This document shows, piece after piece, positions 50-30,283 of a stretch of DNA of 38,690 bases. Below the pieces are notes generated by a model that saw nothing but the letters and a program-made list of their open reading frames with translations, had not been told where the DNA came from and made no database searches. Each line of letters begins with the position of its first letter. The first letter of the stretch is position 1. The translations under genes were made by a program, and so were the position numbers. The DNA comes from a virus: UHGV virus genome UHGV-0117250, one strand, 5' to 3'.

Positions 50-700
50 TCATGCTGCACGCTCCCGCCCCTGGTTGTCTGTTTGTGACAGCGGAGCATT
101 GCTGAATGCATTTGTTAATCCGCCAATATCCAACGCGTATCCAGGGTGTAGTTGCACTGCCGGGTCTTCGCACTGATTACCCCAAACATCGAAGCCATGA
201 GACGACTGGCGGGCGAACAGTTCAATGCGAGAAACATCGCCTAACAATTGCACAAATTTTTCACGAACGACATCTGGTTTTCTTGAATGCTCAAGCCGCG
301 GTGCGGTAAATGACTGAACGATACCTGCATTAATGCGCGGAGGTAGTTTTCCCTTTACCGCAAACAGGCAATCTTCACTATTGGCGCGAGTCATGTGTCC
401 CATACCCATAACCAGTTTATCTTGTTGTCGACTACCACATTTTATCCACGTGAAGCCCTTCATGGTCATCAGACGGAATCCCCAGGCTTCAACAACTTTT
501 AGTGCTTCGAGTGGTTGTGTTGGCACCCACCACATGGCCAACAGACAGTTTTCATCGGCCAAATCCCACACAGGAAGGCGGCAGATATCAAGCACACTCA
601 TAACCGGATATTTAAAACCGGCACCGCGATTACCATCTGCGGCTTTGTCCCGGTATACCCAGGGTGGATCTGCATAGATTAGTGTGTATTTCTTAGTCAT
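50..700 (-). CDS. DNA N6-adenine methyltransferase, Dam-like (MT-A70 family)
   Basis: ORF 50..712(-); N-terminal LIYADPPW contains the DPPW motif typical of MT-A70/phage Dam methyltransferases. The track start at 712 is GTG; the first ATG is at 700. Confidence 0.75.
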   Translation of the reverse strand: MTKKYTLIYADPPWVYRDKAADGNRGAGFKYPVMSVLDICRLPVWDLADENCLLAMWWVPTQPLEALKVVEAWGFRLMTMKGFTWIKCGSRQQDKLVMGMGHMTRANSEDCLFAVKGKLPPRINAGIVQSFTAPRLEHSRKPDVVREKFVQLLGDVSRIELFARQSSHGFDVWGNQCEDPAVQLHPGYALDIGGLTNAFSNAPLSQTDNQGRERAA

Positions 701-992
701 AAACCACCCCACAACATCCTATGCCGCTATAGTCGCCACGGCGAAGGCCGTTACCTTTTGTGATACATTGGTCCCTGCGAACCGCAATCCTTGCTCGCTC
801 AACATCACCAGAAGCAACATCCATACACTGAAGCCAAAGGTGAGCGGCAATGCGGAACTGCCCTTTTTTTTCTCTTTCAATCGCGCGTTTTTCGATCTCT
901 ATCGCCGCAGGAGTAACGGCGACAATCTTTGACGGACTACGCATTGAAACCTTATTCATGTGATATTTTTCAAGTCGGCTTAACTTTCTCAC
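693..992 (-). CDS. hypothetical protein (early-left operon)
   Basis: 99-codon ORF with GTG start at 992 preceded by GAGAGGG; co-oriented with neighbours and its stop overlaps the MTase start. No recognisable motif, and a plus-strand ORF overlaps it. Confidence 0.3.
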   Translation of the reverse strand: MRKLSRLEKYHMNKVSMRSPSKIVAVTPAAIEIEKRAIEREKKGQFRIAAHLWLQCMDVASGDVERARIAVRRDQCITKGNGLRRGDYSGIGCCGVVYD

Positions 993-3099: not shown

Positions 3100-3395
3100 G
3101 CCGCGTCCCTCTGTCCATCAAGCTGATCAGCCAGATCCCAGCGGGCGATAATTGCCATTGCCTCTCGCCGATAGGCATCCATCAGTTCTTCGAACTCAGG
3201 GCTGTCTTTAGCAGCCTCCAGTACTTCCTGACGAACGCCTTTGCCGGTTACAACGTCGAAAGTTGAGGACAGTTGATGAAGCCGGATACTCTCAATCAGT
3301 TCTACTTGTCGGTCATATAGCTGTTCTGACAGTCGGTAGTCCTTGTCGAATGCCTGCATGATTTTTTGAAGATTTTTCTGCTGATTAACGTTCAT
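3096..3395 (-). CDS. hypothetical early protein
   Basis: ATG at 3395 preceded by GGGAGGG at 7-nt spacing; translationally coupled to the downstream exonuclease (ATGA overlap). Confidence 0.5.
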   Translation of the reverse strand: MNVNQQKNLQKIMQAFDKDYRLSEQLYDRQVELIESIRLHQLSSTFDVVTGKGVRQEVLEAAKDSPEFEELMDAYRREAMAIIARWDLADQLDGQRDAA

Positions 3396-7160: not shown

Positions 7161-7700
7161 ATGGAAAGTAATATCAAAGGGTTAGTTACCGCCGGGCATG
7201 AGATGGCTTCGGAACTGAAAGCAGAATGTGGCGCCGTTGATATGCGTAGTGTGGCAAAGCTGATCAGCGATTTGGCAACGCAACTGGAAGTGCAACTGGT
7301 GCGTGCTAATGCGCTGGCCGAAGACCAACAGAAAGCGATTGAGTCAATTAAGCAGGCTGATTCGGCTGTTAAGTTGGCGCACGAGAAGTTTTCAGCACTG
7401 GCAGCGGAGAGTGCGGGGATGAAGAAGTTCTGCAAAGACGCTGCATTCGATGCCGATTACGAAGCAGAGCTAGGTATGGAGCGTGGTGGATTCAGTGATG
7501 CGCTTAACGAAATCAAAACCCCAGCCACCGATGCTTTTCTGGCTGAAGTACGGGCGCAGGGGGTGGATATGGCTCGTAACGCGATGATTGATTTTGTTGA
7601 TGGTGAAATTGGGCCAAACAAGAACGTTCCGGGGCTGATTAGAGGCGCAGAGATATGCGTAAGTATTGCTGAACAGCTTCGCAAAGGAGGCAACCAGTGA
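7161..7700 (+). CDS. hypothetical protein
   Basis: 179 aa, ATG at 7161; no recognisable motif; stop overlaps the next gene start. Confidence 0.5.
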   Translation: MESNIKGLVTAGHEMASELKAECGAVDMRSVAKLISDLATQLEVQLVRANALAEDQQKAIESIKQADSAVKLAHEKFSALAAESAGMKKFCKDAAFDADYEAELGMERGGFSDALNEIKTPATDAFLAEVRAQGVDMARNAMIDFVDGEIGPNKNVPGLIRGAEICVSIAEQLRKGGNQ

Positions 7701-8191
7701 CTGGATATGCAGCAATCCTCGACATGTGCTGTGGCAGTCGCATGTTCTGGTTCGATAAGAAGGACGACCGGGCGATATTTAGCGATATCAGAAAGGAAGA
7801 GCACACATTATGTGATGGACGACGGCTGATAATTAGCCCTGACATGATAGCAGATTTTCGTGCATTACCATTTGCAGACGCATCGTTTCCGGTTGTTGTA
7901 TTCGACCCTCCGCATCTTGAGCGTGTTGGTGATAACGCCTGGATGGGAAAGAAATATGGACGGCTGAATAAAGATACCTGGCGTGATGATTTGCGGCAGG
8001 GATTTAAAGAAGCCTTTCGTGTGTTGCGGCCATACGGCGTTCTGATTTTTAAATGGAATGAAACGCAAATACCTGTTCGCCAGATATTGGCACTGACCGA
8101 CAGAAAGCCTGTTATCGGTCAACGAACAGGAAAGGGTGACAAGACCCACTGGATTATTTTTATGAAGGAGGCGACCAGTGAGCAAAATTAA
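7697..8191 (+). CDS. SAM-dependent DNA methyltransferase (DPPH motif)
   Basis: GTG start at 7697 with AGGAGG SD at 6-nt spacing; VVVFDPPH matches motif IV (D/N-P-P-Y/F/H) of N6A/N4C DNA methyltransferases; short (164 aa), so target recognition is unclear. Confidence 0.6.
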   Translation: MTGYAAILDMCCGSRMFWFDKKDDRAIFSDIRKEEHTLCDGRRLIISPDMIADFRALPFADASFPVVVFDPPHLERVGDNAWMGKKYGRLNKDTWRDDLRQGFKEAFRVLRPYGVLIFKWNETQIPVRQILALTDRKPVIGQRTGKGDKTHWIIFMKEATSEQN

Positions 8192-8625: not shown

Positions 8626-9222
8626 ATGAACGCTATAACCAAAGAACGTATCAAATTATTCATTAAAAATCCGCTTGATAACGGACTTACTCGTGGCGAA
8701 CAAATGGAACTGGCACGAATTGCACTGGCATCACTGGAACGCGAACAGATTCGCCACGAGCATGCCAAATGGTCTGACTCCACATTTGGCAGCGTTGGCC
8801 CCATTGGTCCGCTGAAACATCTCTCAAAAGAGGCACTGGAAGCCGCAGCCGAACCAGACGATCTTAGCGAGTGGGCTGATATGCAGTTTCTGTTGTGGGA
8901 TGCACAGCGCCGTGCTGGCATCAGCGATGCTGAAATTACCGCTGCTATGGAAGATAAATTGAAGATCAACATGGAGCGCCAGTGGCCTGAGCCAAAAGAT
9001 GGTGAGCCTCGCTTGCACATTAAAGAACCCGGCAACTCTCCGGTAATTCCGGATGGTTGGGTTATGGTGCCGAAGGAGTTAACCCCGGAAATGATGAGAG
9101 CCGTTCAGATTAGAAGTGAGCTTGGATGGTATGCCACTTCCAATCTATCTGGTGCATACAATATGTTTTCTGAGTTCTGGAATGTTGCTGTCTCAGCTGC
9201 GCCTAAGGTGGATGATTTATGA
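8626..9222 (+). CDS. DUF550-like protein (putative nucleotide pyrophosphohydrolase-like)
   Basis: 198 aa; N-terminal MNAITKERIKLFIKNP... resembles DUF550 prophage proteins (from memory). Confidence 0.4.
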   Translation: MNAITKERIKLFIKNPLDNGLTRGEQMELARIALASLEREQIRHEHAKWSDSTFGSVGPIGPLKHLSKEALEAAAEPDDLSEWADMQFLLWDAQRRAGISDAEITAAMEDKLKINMERQWPEPKDGEPRLHIKEPGNSPVIPDGWVMVPKELTPEMMRAVQIRSELGWYATSNLSGAYNMFSEFWNVAVSAAPKVDDL

Positions 9223-9521
9223 ATCTATATCGCTGCCCATTCTGTGGTTCCACTGTGCTTAACATCGGATACTCATTCAGTATCAGAGGGAAAATGCGCT
9301 ATGTGTCATGCAAATGTGGTGCCCAAGGACCAGAAAAACGAACTAAATCTGAAGCGATTTCTTCATGGAATAGTCGAATGAAAGTATGGGTTTATGATCC
9401 AGAAACCATATTAAACGCTGAAGAGCGCAGGAGAACGGAAGTCTATATTCATAACCTTAATGAAGATGGATTTACACCAGTGCTTGTAAAGGCTACTCCG
9501 CAGGAGGTTAACCGTGGCTAA
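9219..9521 (+). CDS. Lar-family restriction alleviation protein
   Basis: 100 aa; N-terminal CPFCG motif plus a downstream CKC pair, characteristic of Lar/RalR-type restriction-alleviation proteins; ATGA-coupled to the upstream gene. Confidence 0.6.
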   Translation: MNLYRCPFCGSTVLNIGYSFSIRGKMRYVSCKCGAQGPEKRTKSEAISSWNSRMKVWVYDPETILNAEERRRTEVYIHNLNEDGFTPVLVKATPQEVNRG

Positions 9522-9795
9522 CCTGCAACTAGCCGTTAAAGGTGAATACTTCGATGCCATAATTCGTGGAGAGAAAACGGAAGAGTATCGCCTGTGCAAT
9601 GACTACTGGAATAAACGCCTCGTTAATCGTAAGTATGACCGCCTGATTATCACAAAGGGATATCCGAAGCGCGACGATTCCAGCCGCAGAATTGACGTCC
9701 CGTATGACGGATATGAAATCAAGACAATCACACATCCGCACTTTGGCGATAAACCGGTAAAGGTGTACGCGATAAAGGTAAATATTGATGGCTAA
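9514..9795 (+). CDS. ASCH domain protein
   Basis: GTG start with GGAGG SD; LAVKGEYFDAIIRGEKTEEYR matches the ASCH (PUA-like) N-terminal signature. Confidence 0.55.
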   Translation: MANLQLAVKGEYFDAIIRGEKTEEYRLCNDYWNKRLVNRKYDRLIITKGYPKRDDSSRRIDVPYDGYEIKTITHPHFGDKPVKVYAIKVNIDG

Positions 9796-10126
9796 ATCAG
9801 CAGCAGAGCGCAAAGCCGCTCAGAGAGCCAGACAAGCTGCATCTGGTGTGCGTAAGCTGGAAATTGTGCTTGATGCTCAGGAAATTGAAATGCTTGATCG
9901 TAACTGTGCCGCGCGTCGCCCCGGGCGTGCGCCTTACGAATTTTGTGAGTATATAGCGTTACTGATCCGCCAGGATGATGCACGCGTGCGCGGGCGTATA
10001 AAATCGATTAGCAGAAAACGTTGCGGTAAGTGCGGCGAGAAAGTTCCCGTTAATTCATGCCCGTGTAATGGTGACTCGCAATGCTGGGTGACTAAAGGCT
10101 GGCATGAAACTAAATTAATAGTGTGA
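9788..10126 (+). CDS. hypothetical Cys-rich protein
   Basis: ATG at 9788 (track start 9785 is TTG); C-terminal CGKCGEK...CPCNGDSQC; last gene before the terminase operon; its stop lies inside a 12-bp palindrome. Confidence 0.45.
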   Translation: MAKSAAERKAAQRARQAASGVRKLEIVLDAQEIEMLDRNCAARRPGRAPYEFCEYIALLIRQDDARVRGRIKSISRKRCGKCGEKVPVNSCPCNGDSQCWVTKGWHETKLIV

Positions 10127-10173
10127 CATGTCACGAGTAGATTATGCATGATGAATTTGATGGGTTTTGAATA

Positions 10174-10201
10174 CTGCCGCCAACTATGGCGGCTTTATTT
10201 T
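10174..10201 (+). terminator. rho-independent terminator
   Basis: Hairpin GCCGCC-AACTAT-GGCGGC followed by TTTATTTT. Confidence 0.55.
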
Positions 10202-10244: not shown

Positions 10245-10841
10245 ATGATGCCTGCTGAACCTAAAACATATAAACGCAAATCAACGCAATTTAAGCCACT
10301 AACCGCAATGCAGGAGGCTTATTGCCAGTCATACATCAAAACGCCTGAAAACCAGACTCAGGCAGCGATTAACGCAGGATTCTCCCCAAATACAGCGGCA
10401 GTTAAAGCCAGTGTCATGATGCGCGATGAACGCATTCAAAAACGGATTGCCGAGTTGATGGAGGAGCGCAACAAACGAATGCGCGTCAGTGCCGATTACG
10501 TTCTCATGCGCCTGGTGGAGATCGACCAGATGGACGTGATCGACATCCTCAACGACGATGGGAGCCTTAAGCCAATCCGCGAGTGGCCGAAAATCTGGCG
10601 CACTACGCTTAGTGGCTTTGATCTGTCATCGACCATCATGAACATGAACGAGGATTCGATAGAGACAATCCTCAAAAAAATTAAATGGCCTGACAAGGTG
10701 AAGAACCTCGAACTGATTGGTAAGCACGTCGACGTCAACGCGTTCAAAGAACGCCTGGATGTTAATGTGAATGTGACAATTGCTGATCGCATAGCGGCAG
10801 CCAGGAAGCGACTCAAAGAACGTCAGGATGGTAATCAGTGA
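10245..10841 (+). CDS. terminase small subunit
   Basis: ATG at 10245 within ORF 10167..10841; resembles small-terminase (Terminase_2-type) proteins (...QAAINAGFSPNTAAVKASVMMRDERIQKRIAEL...); directly precedes and overlaps the large subunit. Confidence 0.65.
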   Translation: MMPAEPKTYKRKSTQFKPLTAMQEAYCQSYIKTPENQTQAAINAGFSPNTAAVKASVMMRDERIQKRIAELMEERNKRMRVSADYVLMRLVEIDQMDVIDILNDDGSLKPIREWPKIWRTTLSGFDLSSTIMNMNEDSIETILKKIKWPDKVKNLELIGKHVDVNAFKERLDVNVNVTIADRIAAARKRLKERQDGNQ

Positions 10842-12313
10842 CAGATACAGCGTTATCTCCTGAAGAGCAGTTGATCGAGGATATTGCAGGGTTCACTCAC
10901 GATCCGCTTGGCTATGCCCTCTATGCGTTCCCGTGGGGGGAAGAGGGGACTGAACTGGCACATGCCACCGGCCCACGTCAGTGGCAGGCTGATGCGTTCC
11001 GAGAGATACGTGATCACCTGCAGAATCCAGAGACGCGCTATCAGCCGCTTATGCTGGCACGCGCTTCTGGTCACGGTATTGGTAAATCCGCATTCATCTC
11101 AATGCTGATCAACTGGGGCATGTCCACTTGCGAGGATTGTAAGGTCGTGGTGACCGCCAACACCGACAACCAGCTACGAACGAAGACCTGGCCGGAAATT
11201 ATCAAGTGGTCGAACCTTGCTATCACGAAAGACTGGTTTACCTGTACCGCTACCGCGATGTACAGCAATGATCCTGGGCACGACAAGCGGTGGCGGGCTG
11301 ACGCAATCCCCTGGTCTGAGCACAACACTGAGGCATTCGCCGGACTACACAACGAGCGCAAACGCATCATCGTGGTATTCGATGAAGCGTCGAACATTGC
11401 GGATCTGGTGTGGGAAGTTGCCGAAGGTGCGCTAACGGACGAAGACACTGAGATTATCTGGGTGGCGTTCGGAAACCCGACGCGTAACACCGGGCGTTTC
11501 CGCGAATGTTTCCGCAAATATAAACACCGCTGGAAAACTGCGCAGATTGACAGCCGGACGGTGGAAGGCACTAACAAACAGCAGTTGCAGAAATGGGTTG
11601 ATGACTACGGGGAAGACAGCGACTTCGTTAAAATCCGTGTGCGCGGCATATTCCCGGATGCATCTGAATTGCAGTTTATCCCTACCGGACTTACTGACGA
11701 GGCAATGAAACGGGTGGTCACCGCTGCGCAGGTTGCACATGCTCCGGTGATAATCGGCGTTGACCCGGCATACTCAGGCGTTGATGACGCTGTGATATAC
11801 CTGCGGCAGGGGCTGCACAGTAAGGTGCTGTGGACTGGCAACAAGACCACTGACGATCTGATTATGGCGAAGCGTATCGCTGACTTTGAAGACCAGTACC
11901 AGGCTGACGCAGTGTTCATCGACTTCGGTTACGGAACTGGTCTGAAGTCAATCGGTGACGGCTGGGGTCGTACATGGCAACTTGTTCCGTTCGGTGGCGC
12001 GTCTACTGACCCGCAGATGCTCAACAAGCGTGGGGAGATGTTCAACTCATGTAAGACATGGCTGAGGCTGGGCGGCATGCTGGATGACCAGGAAACTGCA
12101 GACGACCTGTCGGCGGCAGAGTACAAAGTTCGAGTGGACGGTAAAATCGTTATCGAACCGAAGGAAGATATCAAAGAGCGACTTGGGCGTTCGCCGGGTA
12201 AAGGCGATGCGCTGCTGCTGACGTTTGCTTTCCCGGTGTCGAAGCGCCTGCGACTTCCCGGGCAGCAGAACCAGCAAGGCAAGGCGCTTACCGAGTACGA
12301 TCCATATGCTTAG
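10838..12313 (+). CDS. terminase large subunit
   Basis: 491 aa; Walker-A-like ASGHGIGKS; acidic nuclease-type C-terminal region; position and size typical. Confidence 0.8.
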   Translation: MTDTALSPEEQLIEDIAGFTHDPLGYALYAFPWGEEGTELAHATGPRQWQADAFREIRDHLQNPETRYQPLMLARASGHGIGKSAFISMLINWGMSTCEDCKVVVTANTDNQLRTKTWPEIIKWSNLAITKDWFTCTATAMYSNDPGHDKRWRADAIPWSEHNTEAFAGLHNERKRIIVVFDEASNIADLVWEVAEGALTDEDTEIIWVAFGNPTRNTGRFRECFRKYKHRWKTAQIDSRTVEGTNKQQLQKWVDDYGEDSDFVKIRVRGIFPDASELQFIPTGLTDEAMKRVVTAAQVAHAPVIIGVDPAYSGVDDAVIYLRQGLHSKVLWTGNKTTDDLIMAKRIADFEDQYQADAVFIDFGYGTGLKSIGDGWGRTWQLVPFGGASTDPQMLNKRGEMFNSCKTWLRLGGMLDDQETADDLSAAEYKVRVDGKIVIEPKEDIKERLGRSPGKGDALLLTFAFPVSKRLRLPGQQNQQGKALTEYDPYA

Positions 12314-13128
12314 TCTTTATTTTTATCCTCGAAACCTGATAATCCAGATAGAACACCAAAGTTATTAAAAACGTCTGGCTTACCAGATTTTAATCCGGAT
12401 AAGTTGTGTTGCTCCAAAAAGTTGCTAATTGTTTGGCCGTTGCCAAGTGCAAGACTTTTTATTTGAGATTTTTCAGGGTATTTGAGTTTGTATTCGTCGA
12501 AATCATTTTGGAGGGTCTTATATGCCTCATTCATTCTTCCAAGAGTTTCCGATATCTCTTTTAATGAATGATTTAGAGCTGCTAACTGAGCACTGGCGGA
12601 TCTCAATTCGTCATCTTTAGCTTTCAACTCAGCAGTCAATTCCCCCATACTATTCTTTGATCGAATAATCTCTTCTTTCATCTCTTGGATGTCTTTTTCC
12701 GCGCCAGTCTTAACTTTGTCGTATGTAACATCTTTTTTAGCCAATAACCTCTGCAGTCTGGTTTCACGCTGGATTTTTCTTGCCTTCAGGTGATTTTCGA
12801 TTGAGTCATTATTATCAAGAGGCTTTGCTTGCCATACGTTAATGATATTGTTTACCCATGGTAATAGGCAGCAGATAGCAATTACAGATAAGCATGGATA
12901 AAACATAACAGTTTTCCATGTGCTGTTATCTGAGATATATGAAATTTTATCTATTATGTTTGATTTGCTAAAAAATAGATAAAGAATTGATTTCCAGTTG
13001 AAGGCGCACCAGGACATAACAAAAGCACCAAGCACAGGGTTTTTGGCTCGATTCACGGCAGTATTGGCAGTAGATAAAAACAGCTCTTTAAACGATTCAA
13101 ACATGCTAATTACCTTGAAGTTTTTCAT
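12310..13128 (-). CDS. moron: membrane-anchored coiled-coil protein (candidate superinfection-exclusion/abortive-infection factor)
   Basis: Antisense to the structural operon, markedly AT-rich; two hydrophobic segments (PVLGAFVMSWCAFNW; VMFYPCLSVIAICCLLPW) then a long coiled-coil-like C-terminal half; stop codon overlaps the terminase stop. ATG 13128 preferred; an alternative ATG at 13104 has an AAGGT SD. Confidence 0.55.
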   Translation of the reverse strand: MKNFKVISMFESFKELFLSTANTAVNRAKNPVLGAFVMSWCAFNWKSILYLFFSKSNIIDKISYISDNSTWKTVMFYPCLSVIAICCLLPWVNNIINVWQAKPLDNNDSIENHLKARKIQRETRLQRLLAKKDVTYDKVKTGAEKDIQEMKEEIIRSKNSMGELTAELKAKDDELRSASAQLAALNHSLKEISETLGRMNEAYKTLQNDFDEYKLKYPEKSQIKSLALGNGQTISNFLEQHNLSGLKSGKPDVFNNFGVLSGLSGFEDKNKD

Positions 13129-13131
13129 GAT

Positions 13132-13148
13132 TATACCTTTAAGGTAAT
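13132..13148. promoter_or_regulatory. dyad-motif site overlapping moron translation start
   Basis: TATACC-TTTAA-GGTAAT located 4 nt upstream of the moron ATG on the coding strand. Confidence 0.35.
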
Positions 13149-13163
13149 TTGCGGTCATCAAGC

Positions 13164-13188
13164 AAAAAAATGCCCGGCGAACCGGGCG
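13164..13188 (-). terminator. intrinsic terminator-like hairpin (minus strand)
   Basis: GCCCGG-CGAA-CCGGGC followed by a 7-T run on the minus strand, between the tRNA and the moron; a second hairpin with a T-run lies at 13266..13309. Confidence 0.45.
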
Positions 13189-13350
13189 AACTGGAAGCAA
13201 TGAGTTATGCCTTCCGTGGCTGTACGTGTTTACAGCATGAAGTCATCGCAATGGCGTCCTGCTGTAAAAAGGGCGGTGATAGTCCTTCAAGGGAAACCAT
13301 CACCGCCAAGCACCTGGAACTTCTGGCATCACGGTCCTTAGGCGTGATTC

Positions 13351-15755: not shown

Positions 15756-16048
15756 CAGATTACGAAGATGATCAACTGAAAGAAGAAAACGCCCGTAAGC
15801 AACGTGACATGGCACAGCGTGAAATTGATGACATTCGCTTTGTCATGAGCAGTGAACAGGGGCGTCGCGTTGTCTGGTCGGTGCTGGAGAAAGGCCGTGT
15901 GTTTTCCGCTATCTCACCGATGGACGCTATGGCAATGGCATTTAATGAGGGGCAACGCAATCTGGCGCTGGAACTGTTTCAGCGCGTTATGGCGCATTGC
16001 CCTGAACAGTATTTGAAGATGGCCAAAGAGGCCAGTGAACAGGAGTGA
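15752..16048 (+). CDS. hypothetical head-assembly protein
   Basis: 98 aa, ATGA-coupled to the portal gene. Confidence 0.45.
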   Translation: MTDYEDDQLKEENARKQRDMAQREIDDIRFVMSSEQGRRVVWSVLEKGRVFSAISPMDAMAMAFNEGQRNLALELFQRVMAHCPEQYLKMAKEASEQE

Positions 16049-18956: not shown

Positions 18957-19561
18957 TGGCCTCTGTAGTAGAGATCTGTAATCGTGCGCTGTCCAATATT
19001 GGCAACAGCCGCAGTATTAACAGCCTGACGGAAGCCAGCAAGGAAGCGGGGGAATGTTCGCTGCACTTTGAGGCCTGCCGTGATGCTGTTCTTTCTGATT
19101 TTGACTGGAACTTTGCTACCAAACGCGTGGCGCTTGCAGATACGAGCAATCCACCGCCTGACTGGGAATATGCGTACCAGTACCCGTCCGATTGTCTGCG
19201 CATTACTGAAATTATGCTTCCTGGTGTACGCAATCCAACAGCAGCAATGCGCGTTCAGTACGAAGTTGGTGCAGACACCAACGGAACAGGAAAGTTGATC
19301 TACACAGACCAGCCGCAGGCATGGCTCAAGTATGTCTCTCGCGTTTCAGATGTGAACATGTTTGATGCCATTTTTATGGAGGCGTTGGCCTGGCGTCTTG
19401 CGGCAGCTATTAACATGGCGCTGACTGGGAATGCAGACCTCGGTACGTTTGCCCTCAATATGTACAATCGCGTGATTCTTAGTGCTGGCTCGCATAGCCA
19501 GAATGAATCACAGGAACCACAGCCACCGGTTGACGAGTTTACCATTGCGAGGTTGTCCTGA
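18953..19561 (+). CDS. tail tubular protein A-like (T7 gp11-like)
   Basis: 202 aa; N-terminal pattern ICNRALSNIG...L...W.F resembles the T7 gp11 N-terminus (from memory); precedes a large gp12-like gene. Confidence 0.5.
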   Translation: MMASVVEICNRALSNIGNSRSINSLTEASKEAGECSLHFEACRDAVLSDFDWNFATKRVALADTSNPPPDWEYAYQYPSDCLRITEIMLPGVRNPTAAMRVQYEVGADTNGTGKLIYTDQPQAWLKYVSRVSDVNMFDAIFMEALAWRLAAAINMALTGNADLGTFALNMYNRVILSAGSHSQNESQEPQPPVDEFTIARLS

Positions 19562-29842: not shown

Positions 29843-29983
29843 ATGATTGCTTTTATTCTTGTTGTGTTTGCGCTTATTGCACTTGGCGTTATGAACCGTA
29901 AATGTATCATTGGTGATGGTGAATTTGCTGTTGCAGTTATTTTGATATTATCTGGTGTAGCAGGGTACATAGGCTTGTCATAA
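29843..29983 (+). CDS. small hydrophobic protein (46 aa, two predicted TM segments)
   Basis: Not in the ORF track; AAGGA SD 6 nt before ATG 29843; MIAFILVVFALIALGVM...AVAVILILSGVAGYIGLS; followed by a palindrome and terminator. Confidence 0.35.
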   Translation: MIAFILVVFALIALGVMNRKCIIGDGEFAVAVILILSGVAGYIGLS

Positions 29984-30002
29984 CGTGAGCGTGACATGTC
30001 AC

Positions 30003-30028
30003 AGGCCGCTCTAGCGGCCTTTTCTTTA
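30003..30028. terminator. bidirectional intrinsic terminator between convergent genes
   Basis: AGGCCGC-TCTA-GCGGCCT followed by TTTCTTT on the plus strand; the stop of the minus-strand gene lies in the T-run. Confidence 0.55.
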
Positions 30029-30283
30029 TGTGGTTTGTTTTCGTAATTGTTCGGCACAATAGTCGAGATGTGTTTGCAGATCCCGCATAGACATCTGTGA
30101 GCTGGTGACGTAGTTAATCAGTGCAGTCAGTTCGGCAAGTGGGCCATCGACATTAAATCCATCCTTATCGAGCTCCCGGAGTAATTTCATCAAGTGCGAT
30201 CCCTCCACCAGTGATCTGACGCCTCCCGGCGTGTGAATCCTTTCGGTAAATCCGTCTTCCAGTGGATAGTGATACTGCTGCAT
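30026..30283 (-). CDS. LexA-regulated small protein (candidate antirepressor)
   Basis: 85 aa from ATG 30283 with GGAG SD (track start 30301 is TTG); a near-consensus LexA box lies about 20 bp upstream. Confidence 0.5.
   Translation of the reverse strand: MQQYHYPLEDGFTERIHTPGGVRSLVEGSHLMKLLRELDKDGFNVDGPLAELTALINYVTSSQMSMRDLQTHLDYCAEQLRKQTT

Follow-up and report, generated by a model that had tools for sequence, protein, structure and literature searches.

The 38,690-nucleotide (nt) stretch of viral DNA UHGV-0117250, hereafter the window, contains two exact copies of a perfect 12-bp palindrome, GTGACATGTCAC, one at the junction between the early genes and terminase (copy A) and one at the end of the structural operon (copy C). 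The site is real, is conserved in relatives of the window and co-occurs with a small gene family in unrelated phages. Very probably it is the operator, or recognition site, of a protein encoded at 9788-10126, a predicted ribbon-helix-helix (RHH) protein whose stop codon copy A overlaps, the two forming a cognate protein-site pair. This assignment is based on sequence comparison and a structural model.

Results

The palindrome in the window

By megablast the region around the palindrome matches the Escherichia phages PAS61, phiV10, TL-2011b and ZX5, among others, at 93-98% identity, with Salmonella epsilon15-type phages as more distant matches. The gene order is that of the annotated phiV10 genome: a leftward early operon with the repressor, a rightward early operon (cro-like, replication and nin-like genes) and terminase, followed by the structural and ejection-protein operon, leftward accessory genes, tailspike and lysis genes. 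Judged by this gene order and these matches, the window is a Uetakevirus-type (epsilon15/phiV10-like) temperate podovirus or prophage.

An earlier note on the window had reported both copies, at 10123-10134 and 29991-30002, and these coordinates were confirmed (Table 1), as was the statement that copy A overlaps the stop codon of the last gene before terminase and lies close to a terminator and to terminase: the TGA falls within the site, a terminator-like hairpin follows after 41 nt and the TerS ATG after 113 nt. Copy C does adjoin a hairpin behind the ejection-protein genes, as had been described, but this hairpin was called a terminator on the + strand only; on the - strand it is followed by GUGACAUG, with no U tract, and the description of the terminator as bidirectional was not supported. 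The two copies lie 19.9 kb apart. A one-mismatch copy in the window, GTGACATGGCAC, is kept only among near-identical E. coli relatives and may be a weak site or chance.

The earlier note had further argued that two copies are unlikely by chance. For this 12-mer 0.10 matches are expected in the window, and none of 100 shuffles reached three. When any 12-bp palindrome present twice was counted, which is the fair post-hoc statistic, 22 of 1000 Markov simulations gave such a result (p ~0.02), the window itself holding 10 palindromic 12-mers. Since this post-hoc p is only ~0.02, two copies are only modestly unlikely in the window, which by itself is weak evidence, and it is conservation in the relatives that makes the feature real. 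A second repeated palindrome, the 10-mer GCTGATCAGC at 3122-3131 and 7259-7268, includes GATC and may be chance.

Conservation in related phages

Nine related genomes, with Escherichia, Salmonella, Enterobacter and Klebsiella as hosts, were scanned together with 80 close relatives from IMG/VR. Across the nine genomes, and thus in four host genera, the exact 12-mer recurs at equivalent places while the flanks diverge, so that the conservation for which the earlier note had asked was indeed found. Eight of the nine have copy A without mismatch where the homologous gene has its stop codon, and phiV10, whose record opens right after the regulator stop codon and splits the site, has one mismatch there (rejoined, the site reads GTGACATGTTAC). 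A genome end at the palindrome, at which this record start might hint, was considered and rejected, the record having merely been opened after the stop codon of its last gene. Copy C, too, is kept without mismatch in eight of the nine where the structural operon ends, even where the upstream gene is a different one (arc-ant in TL-2011b, other small genes in ZX5, Tyrion and BUCT711), and in ZX5 and BUCT711 the palindrome again provides the TGA stop of that gene. A third copy (copy B) follows closely on the TerL terminator and is 4 nt away from the stop codon of a leftward gene that varies; it is exact in five relatives and carries one mismatch in PAT1. The window is without copy B because a different leftward gene (12310-13200) overlaps its TerL end. 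At copies A, B and C alike one flank is constant and the other variable, which places the palindrome exactly at mosaic joints. Of the 80 close IMG/VR loci, 79 carry the palindrome at least once, and every Uetakevirus examined has the regulator gene as a fixed core gene at its early/late junction.

The hairpin behind copy A is conserved in epsilon15-type relatives. In 30 of the 80 close relatives an intact open reading frame (ORF) of 70 residues (MPKIRYDLEDMRDN...) starts 9 nt past the palindrome and separates it from the terminator; in the window what is left of it is a 3' remnant, and the spacer 10135-10175 is a deletion scar. Since this ORF stands between the two elements in those relatives, the closeness of copy A to its terminator is partly accidental. 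A sigma-70-like promoter at copy A (GTGACA-18-CATGAT) was rejected, its -10-like hexamer falling in the ORF remnant and being absent where relatives keep the ORF; no promoter-like hexamers were found at copies B and C, and no conserved -10 element at the site. The palindrome was not found to be part of a terminator stem or of an antiterminator fold either: the hairpins fold apart from it, no competing structure was seen, and an alternative RNA fold was dismissed as not significant against shuffles (z ~-1.7).

In BUCT711 a promoter-like region with a perfect LexA box (TACTGTTTAAATATACAGTA, about 370-425) lies directly downstream of the regulator gene and palindrome, and LexA boxes TACTGTGTATTTATACAGTA and TACTGTTCGCATAAACAGT are likewise found downstream of gene and palindrome in two IMG/VR loci. 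The sequences suggest an SOS-controlled gene set beside the palindrome in several lineages.

The motif follows the gene into unrelated phages

Distant lineages were sampled one at a time, there being no stretch conserved enough for alignment-based reach. The motif GTGAC-NN-GTCAC is present in 1-4 copies in 16 of 17 genomes or loci that bear the gene family, against 0.01-0.05 copies expected in each, and in zero copies in lambda and in P22. At least seven unrelated lineages combine gene and motif, among them lambda-like, ZF40-like, P2-like and N15-like phages and Vibrio siphoviruses. In the lambda-like phage Chlobot the homologous gene is located in the leftward early region, with an exact palindrome 6 nt past its stop, while in the myovirus ZF40 the palindrome follows 2 nt past the gp22 stop and two further copies are present. 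The N15-like plasmid prophage phiKO2 has GTGACTGGTCAC overlapping the Gp45 stop and again within its replicase gene, and the Yersinia P2-like phage vB_YenM_42.18 carries an exact copy and the one-mismatch variant GTGACATGGCAC, 33 bp apart. Distant homologues (~35% identity) are encoded by Vibrio phage K303 and a related IMG/VR contig, where the sites read GTGACACGTCAC and GTGACGCGTCAC, with three copies each. From lineage to lineage the centre bases are AT, TG, GC or AC, and the outer GTGAC half-sites are unchanged from Vibrio to Escherichia. Thus, a short symmetric site co-occurs with a protein, as would be expected of an operator. Besides its three 12-bp sites K303 has, at 19491-19503, one 13-bp sequence, GTGACACCGTCAC, that is a perfect match to the consensus of matS, the site of the host protein MatP (~0.01 expected).

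The association was also examined in the reverse direction. IMG/VR was scanned for the 14-mer TGTGACATGTCACA only, whose flanks are unlike those of the window, which makes the sample independent of the Uetakevirus copies. The family gene was present in 32 of the 120 stretches recovered (mean 9.5 kb), and in 17 of these 32 the palindrome lies within 8 nt of the 3' end of the gene; at least six further stretches are Uetakevirus copy-B or copy-C regions in which the regulator gene falls outside the stored stretch. Because the family is so rare, with 160 clusters at 50% identity among 1.84 billion proteins, this amounts to an enrichment of more than 100-fold.

In ZF40-like phages two exact palindromes, separated by 2.1-2.5 kb, are found around the immunity region (5125 and 7622 in ZF40), a placement like that of lambda nutL/nutR or OL/OR. 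One palindrome of the pair is located inside a cII-like gene, where it codes for (C/R)DMS(Q/H). All 12 bases are invariant in nine sequences, three synonymous positions included, with flanks at 63-71% column identity and amino-acid changes just outside the 12-mer. Selection appears therefore, on this comparison, to act on the DNA of the palindrome itself within the coding region.

The proposed regulator and its family

The 112-residue product of the gene matches PHROG 536 ('transcriptional regulator'). No Pfam family, no NCBIfam Q match and no solved structure were found for it by sequence, and no match in the defence-system libraries of PADLOC. In the phage collection the family is confined to phages of Vibrio, Escherichia, Salmonella, Klebsiella, Yersinia, Aeromonas, Enterobacter, Pectobacterium and Citrobacter, whose hosts all belong to the Enterobacterales, Vibrionales or Aeromonadales. 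An AlphaFold model drawing on 56 diverse members, with a predicted local distance difference test (pLDDT) score of 91, consists of a basic N-terminal helix rich in arginine and lysine (AERKAAQRARQ), an extended segment, two helices, a Cys-rich knuckle in which C79 and C82 are invariant and C99 is near-invariant, and a short helix. The fold is predicted to be an RHH DNA-binding domain joined to a Cys-rich module; MatP, an RHH protein, is among the fold matches of the predicted structure, and weak RHH_5 matches were seen in only 2 of the 56 members. The outward-facing beta-strand residues are K-E-V in the enteric clade and E-R-K in the Vibrio clade, and the sites of the two clades differ only in the central two bases.

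Table 1. Features of the window that bear on the palindrome
Feature	Position	Strand	Remarks
Palindrome copy A, GTGACATGTCAC	10123..10134	.	TGA stop of the regulator (10124-10126) forms bases 2-4 of the site
Palindrome copy C, GTGACATGTCAC	29991..30002	.	7 nt past the stop of the 46-residue membrane ORF; abuts hairpin 30003-30020
One-mismatch copy, GTGACATGGCAC	15804..15815	.	within the coding region of a small gene after portal
Gene for 112-residue protein, predicted RHH plus Cys-rich	9788..10126	+	homologue of phiV10 gp55 and epsilon15 gp49; PHROG 536; last gene of the early-right operon; proposed palindrome binder
Terminator-like hairpin, GCCGCCaactatGGCGGC + TTTATTTT	10176..10201 (stem 10176-10193, then T run)	+	intrinsic type; between early-right operon and TerS; from scan and fold
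Remnant of the 3' end of a 70-residue ORF (DEFDGF and stop), GATGAATTTGATGGGTTTTGA	10150..10170	+	from comparison with relatives
TerS	10248-10841		ATG at 10248
46-residue membrane ORF	29843..29983	+	last gene of the structural/ejection operon; basis includes the phiV10 gp21 annotation
Terminator-like hairpin, AGGCCGCtctaGCGGCCT + TTTCTTTAT	30003..30029 (stem 30003-30020, then T run)	+ (only strand called by scan)	abuts copy C; annotated terminator in phiV10
Lar-type restriction-alleviation protein	9219-9521	+	near upstream of the regulator gene
Borderline ASCH-domain protein	9514-9795	+	E 0.002, below the Pfam cut-off; directly upstream of the regulator gene
Two DNA methyltransferase genes	50-712; 7697-8191	-; +	
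PerC-like 'transcriptional activator' gene	693-992	-	PHROG 868

Discussion

A probable operator within transcription units

If the palindrome is an operator, one symmetric dimer would be expected to bind each 12-bp site, with the paired beta-strands reading the centre of the site at the dyad and the basic N-terminal helices contacting the outer GTGAC half-sites. Such an arrangement, with the beta-ribbon over the dyad, fits both the fixed half-sites and the centre bases, which vary in parallel with the beta-strand residues. It is likely, if less so than the pairing of protein and site, that the protein affects transcription that passes through the site. The sites are located within transcription units (at gene 3' ends, in leaders or within ORFs) and not at promoters, so that the operator over a promoter that marks classical autorepression was not found. 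This placement, at stop codons, beside terminators and inside coding regions, is unusual for an RHH operator and points to control of the elongating polymerase and not of initiation.

We favour a barrier to RNA polymerase, which would fit RHH proteins, as these are mostly repressors. The RHH protein would be made from the early-right operon after induction or infection and would then occupy its sites, namely copy A at the early/late junction before terminase, copy C where the end of the structural operon meets the leftward genes and, in the many relatives that have it, the third site behind TerL. Bound there, it could serve as an orientation-independent, protein-dependent barrier that backs up the adjacent intrinsic terminator and insulates abutting or converging transcription units. 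Of the 134 sites considered, 22 have a terminator no more than 45 nt away, compared with 79 of 2400 random positions, and several non-homologous terminators follow the gene and palindrome at 10-41 nt. At copy C the palindrome is on that side of the hairpin that has no U run, and at copy B of phiV10 the run on the palindrome side is only GUUU. The barrier effect itself is a conjecture. We tentatively rank a barrier at operon ends first, at somewhat under even odds, and a read-through switch second, as possible but unlikely, with a looping or architectural role taking most of the remainder. For the explanation as a whole, an operator of the RHH protein together with a barrier effect, our confidence is a little better than even.

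Several points weigh against this explanation. That the protein binds the palindrome is something we infer from co-occurrence and from the predicted fold, and there is an exception to the co-occurrence, the motif being absent from the genome of an Aeromonas phage that encodes a distant family member; the relative EC.W1-9 retains copy A only. For rightward transcription a barrier is redundant where an intrinsic terminator follows closely, as it does at copies A and C, and in the Vibrio phages, where one site precedes the ribosome-binding site or start codon of TerS by 11-19 nt, it would shut off terminase. The hairpin of BUCT711 has its T-rich side facing the palindrome. Which of the two, palindrome or terminator, comes first shows only a weak bias (14 to 8) and does not discriminate between a barrier and read-through. 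A single small RHH dimer on a 12-bp site may be too weak to halt RNA polymerase. Finally, no Q or N homologue is recognisable in the window, and scans for consensus promoters, which are blind to possible activator-dependent late promoters, found none from the terminator to TerS and none upstream of the tailspike gene on the + strand; both findings favour read-through.

Comparison with known systems

The closest kind of system is that of the RHH repressors with short palindromic operators, such as Arc and Mnt of P22, CopG, MetJ and the antitoxins MazE, ParD and TacA. Unlike these, the phage protein falls outside their sequence families (it has no Pfam match) and adds a C-terminal Cys-rich module (CxxC...C...C) and a basic N-terminal helix, and its sites are single and isolated rather than tandem and do not lie over the -35 and -10 elements of its own promoter. 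The pair is best filed as a new RHH regulator and operator, with an unusual fused Cys-rich module and an unusual site placement. The barrier proposed here resembles operon-internal roadblocks of the LacI, CodY and CcpA type, in which a site-specific protein stops elongating RNA polymerase in either orientation; the regulators there are cellular and usually bind with high affinity or as multimers, and to our knowledge there is no description of an RHH roadblock from a phage that is paired with intrinsic terminators.

The half-sites of the palindrome are also those of matS, the site of MatP, which organises E. coli's Ter macrodomain. The matS pattern has 13 bp, GTGAC[AG]N[TC]GTCAC (PMC3603311), that is GTGAC-RNY-GTCAC, while the phage site GTGAC-NN-GTCAC has 12; the palindrome does not match the pattern and, read as sequence, is matS minus one central base and hence no matS. 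Profile comparison gave no sign of homology of the protein to MatP, hhalign of the family profile against E. coli MatP giving a probability of 0.3%, and the similarity seen is at the RHH structural level only; the four-helix bundle and coiled coil of MatP are missing from the phage protein. The sites described here are in phages, whereas matS is reported to be avoided by prophages (PMC3603311).

The C-terminal half of the protein aligns weakly with the C4 zinc-finger proteins TraR and YbiI of the TraR/DksA kind, via CxxCG..(I/L)P...G..C (E 0.03-0.05; hhalign 49%), and the order of long helix, zinc knuckle and short helix is similar. In contrast to those proteins, none of the 56 members has a Pfam zf-dskA_traR match, of the second CxxC only one conserved Cys is left, and neither TraR nor DksA was retrieved when structures were searched, be it with the whole protein or with its C-terminal domain in isolation; furthermore, the long helix doubles as RHH helix 2 and could not enter the secondary channel of the polymerase.

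Alternative explanations

The most serious rival to a barrier is a late switch by site-dependent read-through, with Q-like logic and an unrelated protein, which we consider rather unlikely on balance. The bound RHH protein would engage RNA polymerase as it crosses the site and take it past the terminator, so that early-right transcription would continue through 10176-10201 into terminase and late transcription through 30003-30029 toward the tailspike and lysis genes. The order of elements is that of lambdoid late antitermination (lambda Q-QBE-tR'; P22 gene 23-qut-t late): the regulator is the last early gene (9788-10126), and the DNA site (10123-10134), the terminator (10176-10201) and the late genes (TerS at 10248) follow, P22 being annotated alike, with gene 23, P late/qut and t late. 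Like the missing Q or N homologue and promoters mentioned above, the fixed position of the regulator gene at the Uetakevirus early/late junction argues for read-through, as do the non-homologous terminators 10-41 nt past gene and palindrome in several lineages, the Vibrio site in the TerS leader and the ZF40-like pair, which flanks the immunity region at nutL/nutR-like positions; there is little sense in a barrier ahead of a terminator or, in the Vibrio phages, ahead of TerS. Q proteins are DNA-binding and belong to several unrelated families. In a more specific and more doubtful version the RHH/Cys-rich protein would be a fourth, unrelated kind of Q-like late regulator, handed to the elongating polymerase on collision at the 12-bp site, and the Cys-rich module, with its weak likeness to TraR/DksA, might contact the polymerase and lead to read-through of the following terminator. 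However, we know of no antitermination by an RHH protein, and such a polymerase-binding module finds no backing in the structure searches. The protein has no homology to any Q family (PHROG 536 is its only match), extra copies of its site are found at other operon ends, and related phages carry the gene besides a Q homologue, as ZF40, Chlobot and phiKO2 already have Q-like genes. Unlike a Q site, the palindrome does not lie within a constitutive late promoter that has a promoter-proximal pause; neither a promoter nor a sigma-dependent pause element is conserved at the site, where an ORF starts 9 nt on in 30 of the 80 relatives, and at the third copy of the relatives the palindrome comes after the hairpin in the late direction. 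Activator-dependent late promoters are possible as well, and the PerC-like gene at 693-992 is an alternative candidate for a late-gene activator. The proposal in the earlier note of a binding site for a late regulator or antitermination factor therefore holds as to a regulator site, for which the RHH protein is the candidate given co-occurrence in at least seven lineages, while the late or antiterminator role comes only second.

The remaining explanations are a good deal less probable. In an architectural role, dimers at separate palindromes would bridge these, in the way first proposed for MatP at matS or as in the OL-OR looping of lambda, and the loop would enclose the terminase genes (between A and B in the relatives) or the immunity region (ZF40-like phages). 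Site pairs are indeed 2.1-2.5 kb apart in two unrelated settings, around TerS-TerL and around cI/cro/cII, the extra Cys-rich module could mediate dimer-dimer contacts, and the RHH protein MatP is among the fold matches; but the window has no copy B and its two copies are far apart, single-site genomes exist (Chlobot, EC.W1-9), tetramerisation is without support and the similar spacing may be coincidence, which makes looping improbable. It is still less probable that the transcribed palindrome acts as a small RNA hairpin (GUGA-CNNG-UCAC) bound by the arginine-rich N-terminus, like N at boxB. All sites are within transcription units, the N-terminal helix is basic and the ZF40-like sites are placed like nut sites, yet RHH is a fold that binds double-stranded DNA, the stem has only 4 bp and folds no better than shuffles, and the GTGACATGGCAC variant would disrupt it; stem bases never covary from Vibrio to Escherichia, which fits base-specific reading of DNA half-sites. 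Enterobacterales, Vibrionales and Aeromonadales possess MatP, and with all hosts in these orders, with half-sites identical to those of matS and with the true matS-consensus site in K303, host MatP might bind the palindrome as a matS-like sequence and tie phage or prophage DNA into Ter-macrodomain organisation. We think this highly improbable, as the site has 12 bp and not 13 with its half-sites displaced by one base pair, the defining pattern is absent, prophages are reported to avoid matS (PMC3603311), and such a reading leaves unexplained why, in unrelated phages, the site is fixed to the point where the RHH gene stops. Hardly any weight remains for a packaging signal, for a methylation or restriction target, or for a chance repeat or recombination scar, the former two of which had been put forward in the earlier note. 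Copy A is near terminase and a Vibrio copy just before TerS, but the motif occurs 2-4 times per genome and travels with the RHH gene among phages with unrelated terminases (lambda-type, DUF2280-type and HK97/HNH-type) and cos or pac strategies, in place of the single site with one terminase type expected of pac or cos. The window encodes two DNA methyltransferases, but the central CATG or ACATGT becomes TG, GC or AC at the centre in other lineages while the outer GTGAC stays fixed. Chance is excluded by conservation and enrichment, and although the sites coincide with mosaic joints, as a recombination scar would, such joints are expected beside any conserved island and leave the conservation inside a coding region unexplained.

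Implications and further observations

Epsilon15 and phiV10 are workhorses of structural biology and of O157 detection. No paper with the 12-mer was found among the searchable papers, though the epsilon15 genome paper may mention the repeat; the literature on epsilon15, phiV10, Uetakevirus, RHH proteins and antitermination gave nothing on this element, the ZX5 paper is silent on the palindrome, and no described late regulator for the epsilon15/phiV10 group was found in the searchable papers. The present finding offers this group a concrete candidate regulator-site pair, defines a compact protein family without a Pfam model in phages of Enterobacterales, Vibrionales and Aeromonadales, and makes GTGAC-NN-GTCAC annotatable in hundreds of phage and prophage genomes. 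Control of elongation by an RHH protein, if true, would be a new use of the RHH fold. The Q-like reading, if true, would explain how epsilon15/phiV10-type phages without a Q or N homologue turn on their terminase, structural, tailspike and lysis genes. Because its half-sites equal those of matS, the RHH protein might also touch host MatP sites, and the one-base difference between the two sites raises the question of cross-talk with chromosome organisation.

The leftward gene that overlaps the TerL end of the window (12310-13200, - strand, 296 residues) stands where relatives have the module of palindrome and terminator. Besides a match to PHROG 4780 (function unknown), it gives weak matches of the coiled-coil type to the DndD, LmuB and JetC defence models (E 4e-5 to 1e-2), and it may be an accessory or defence gene.

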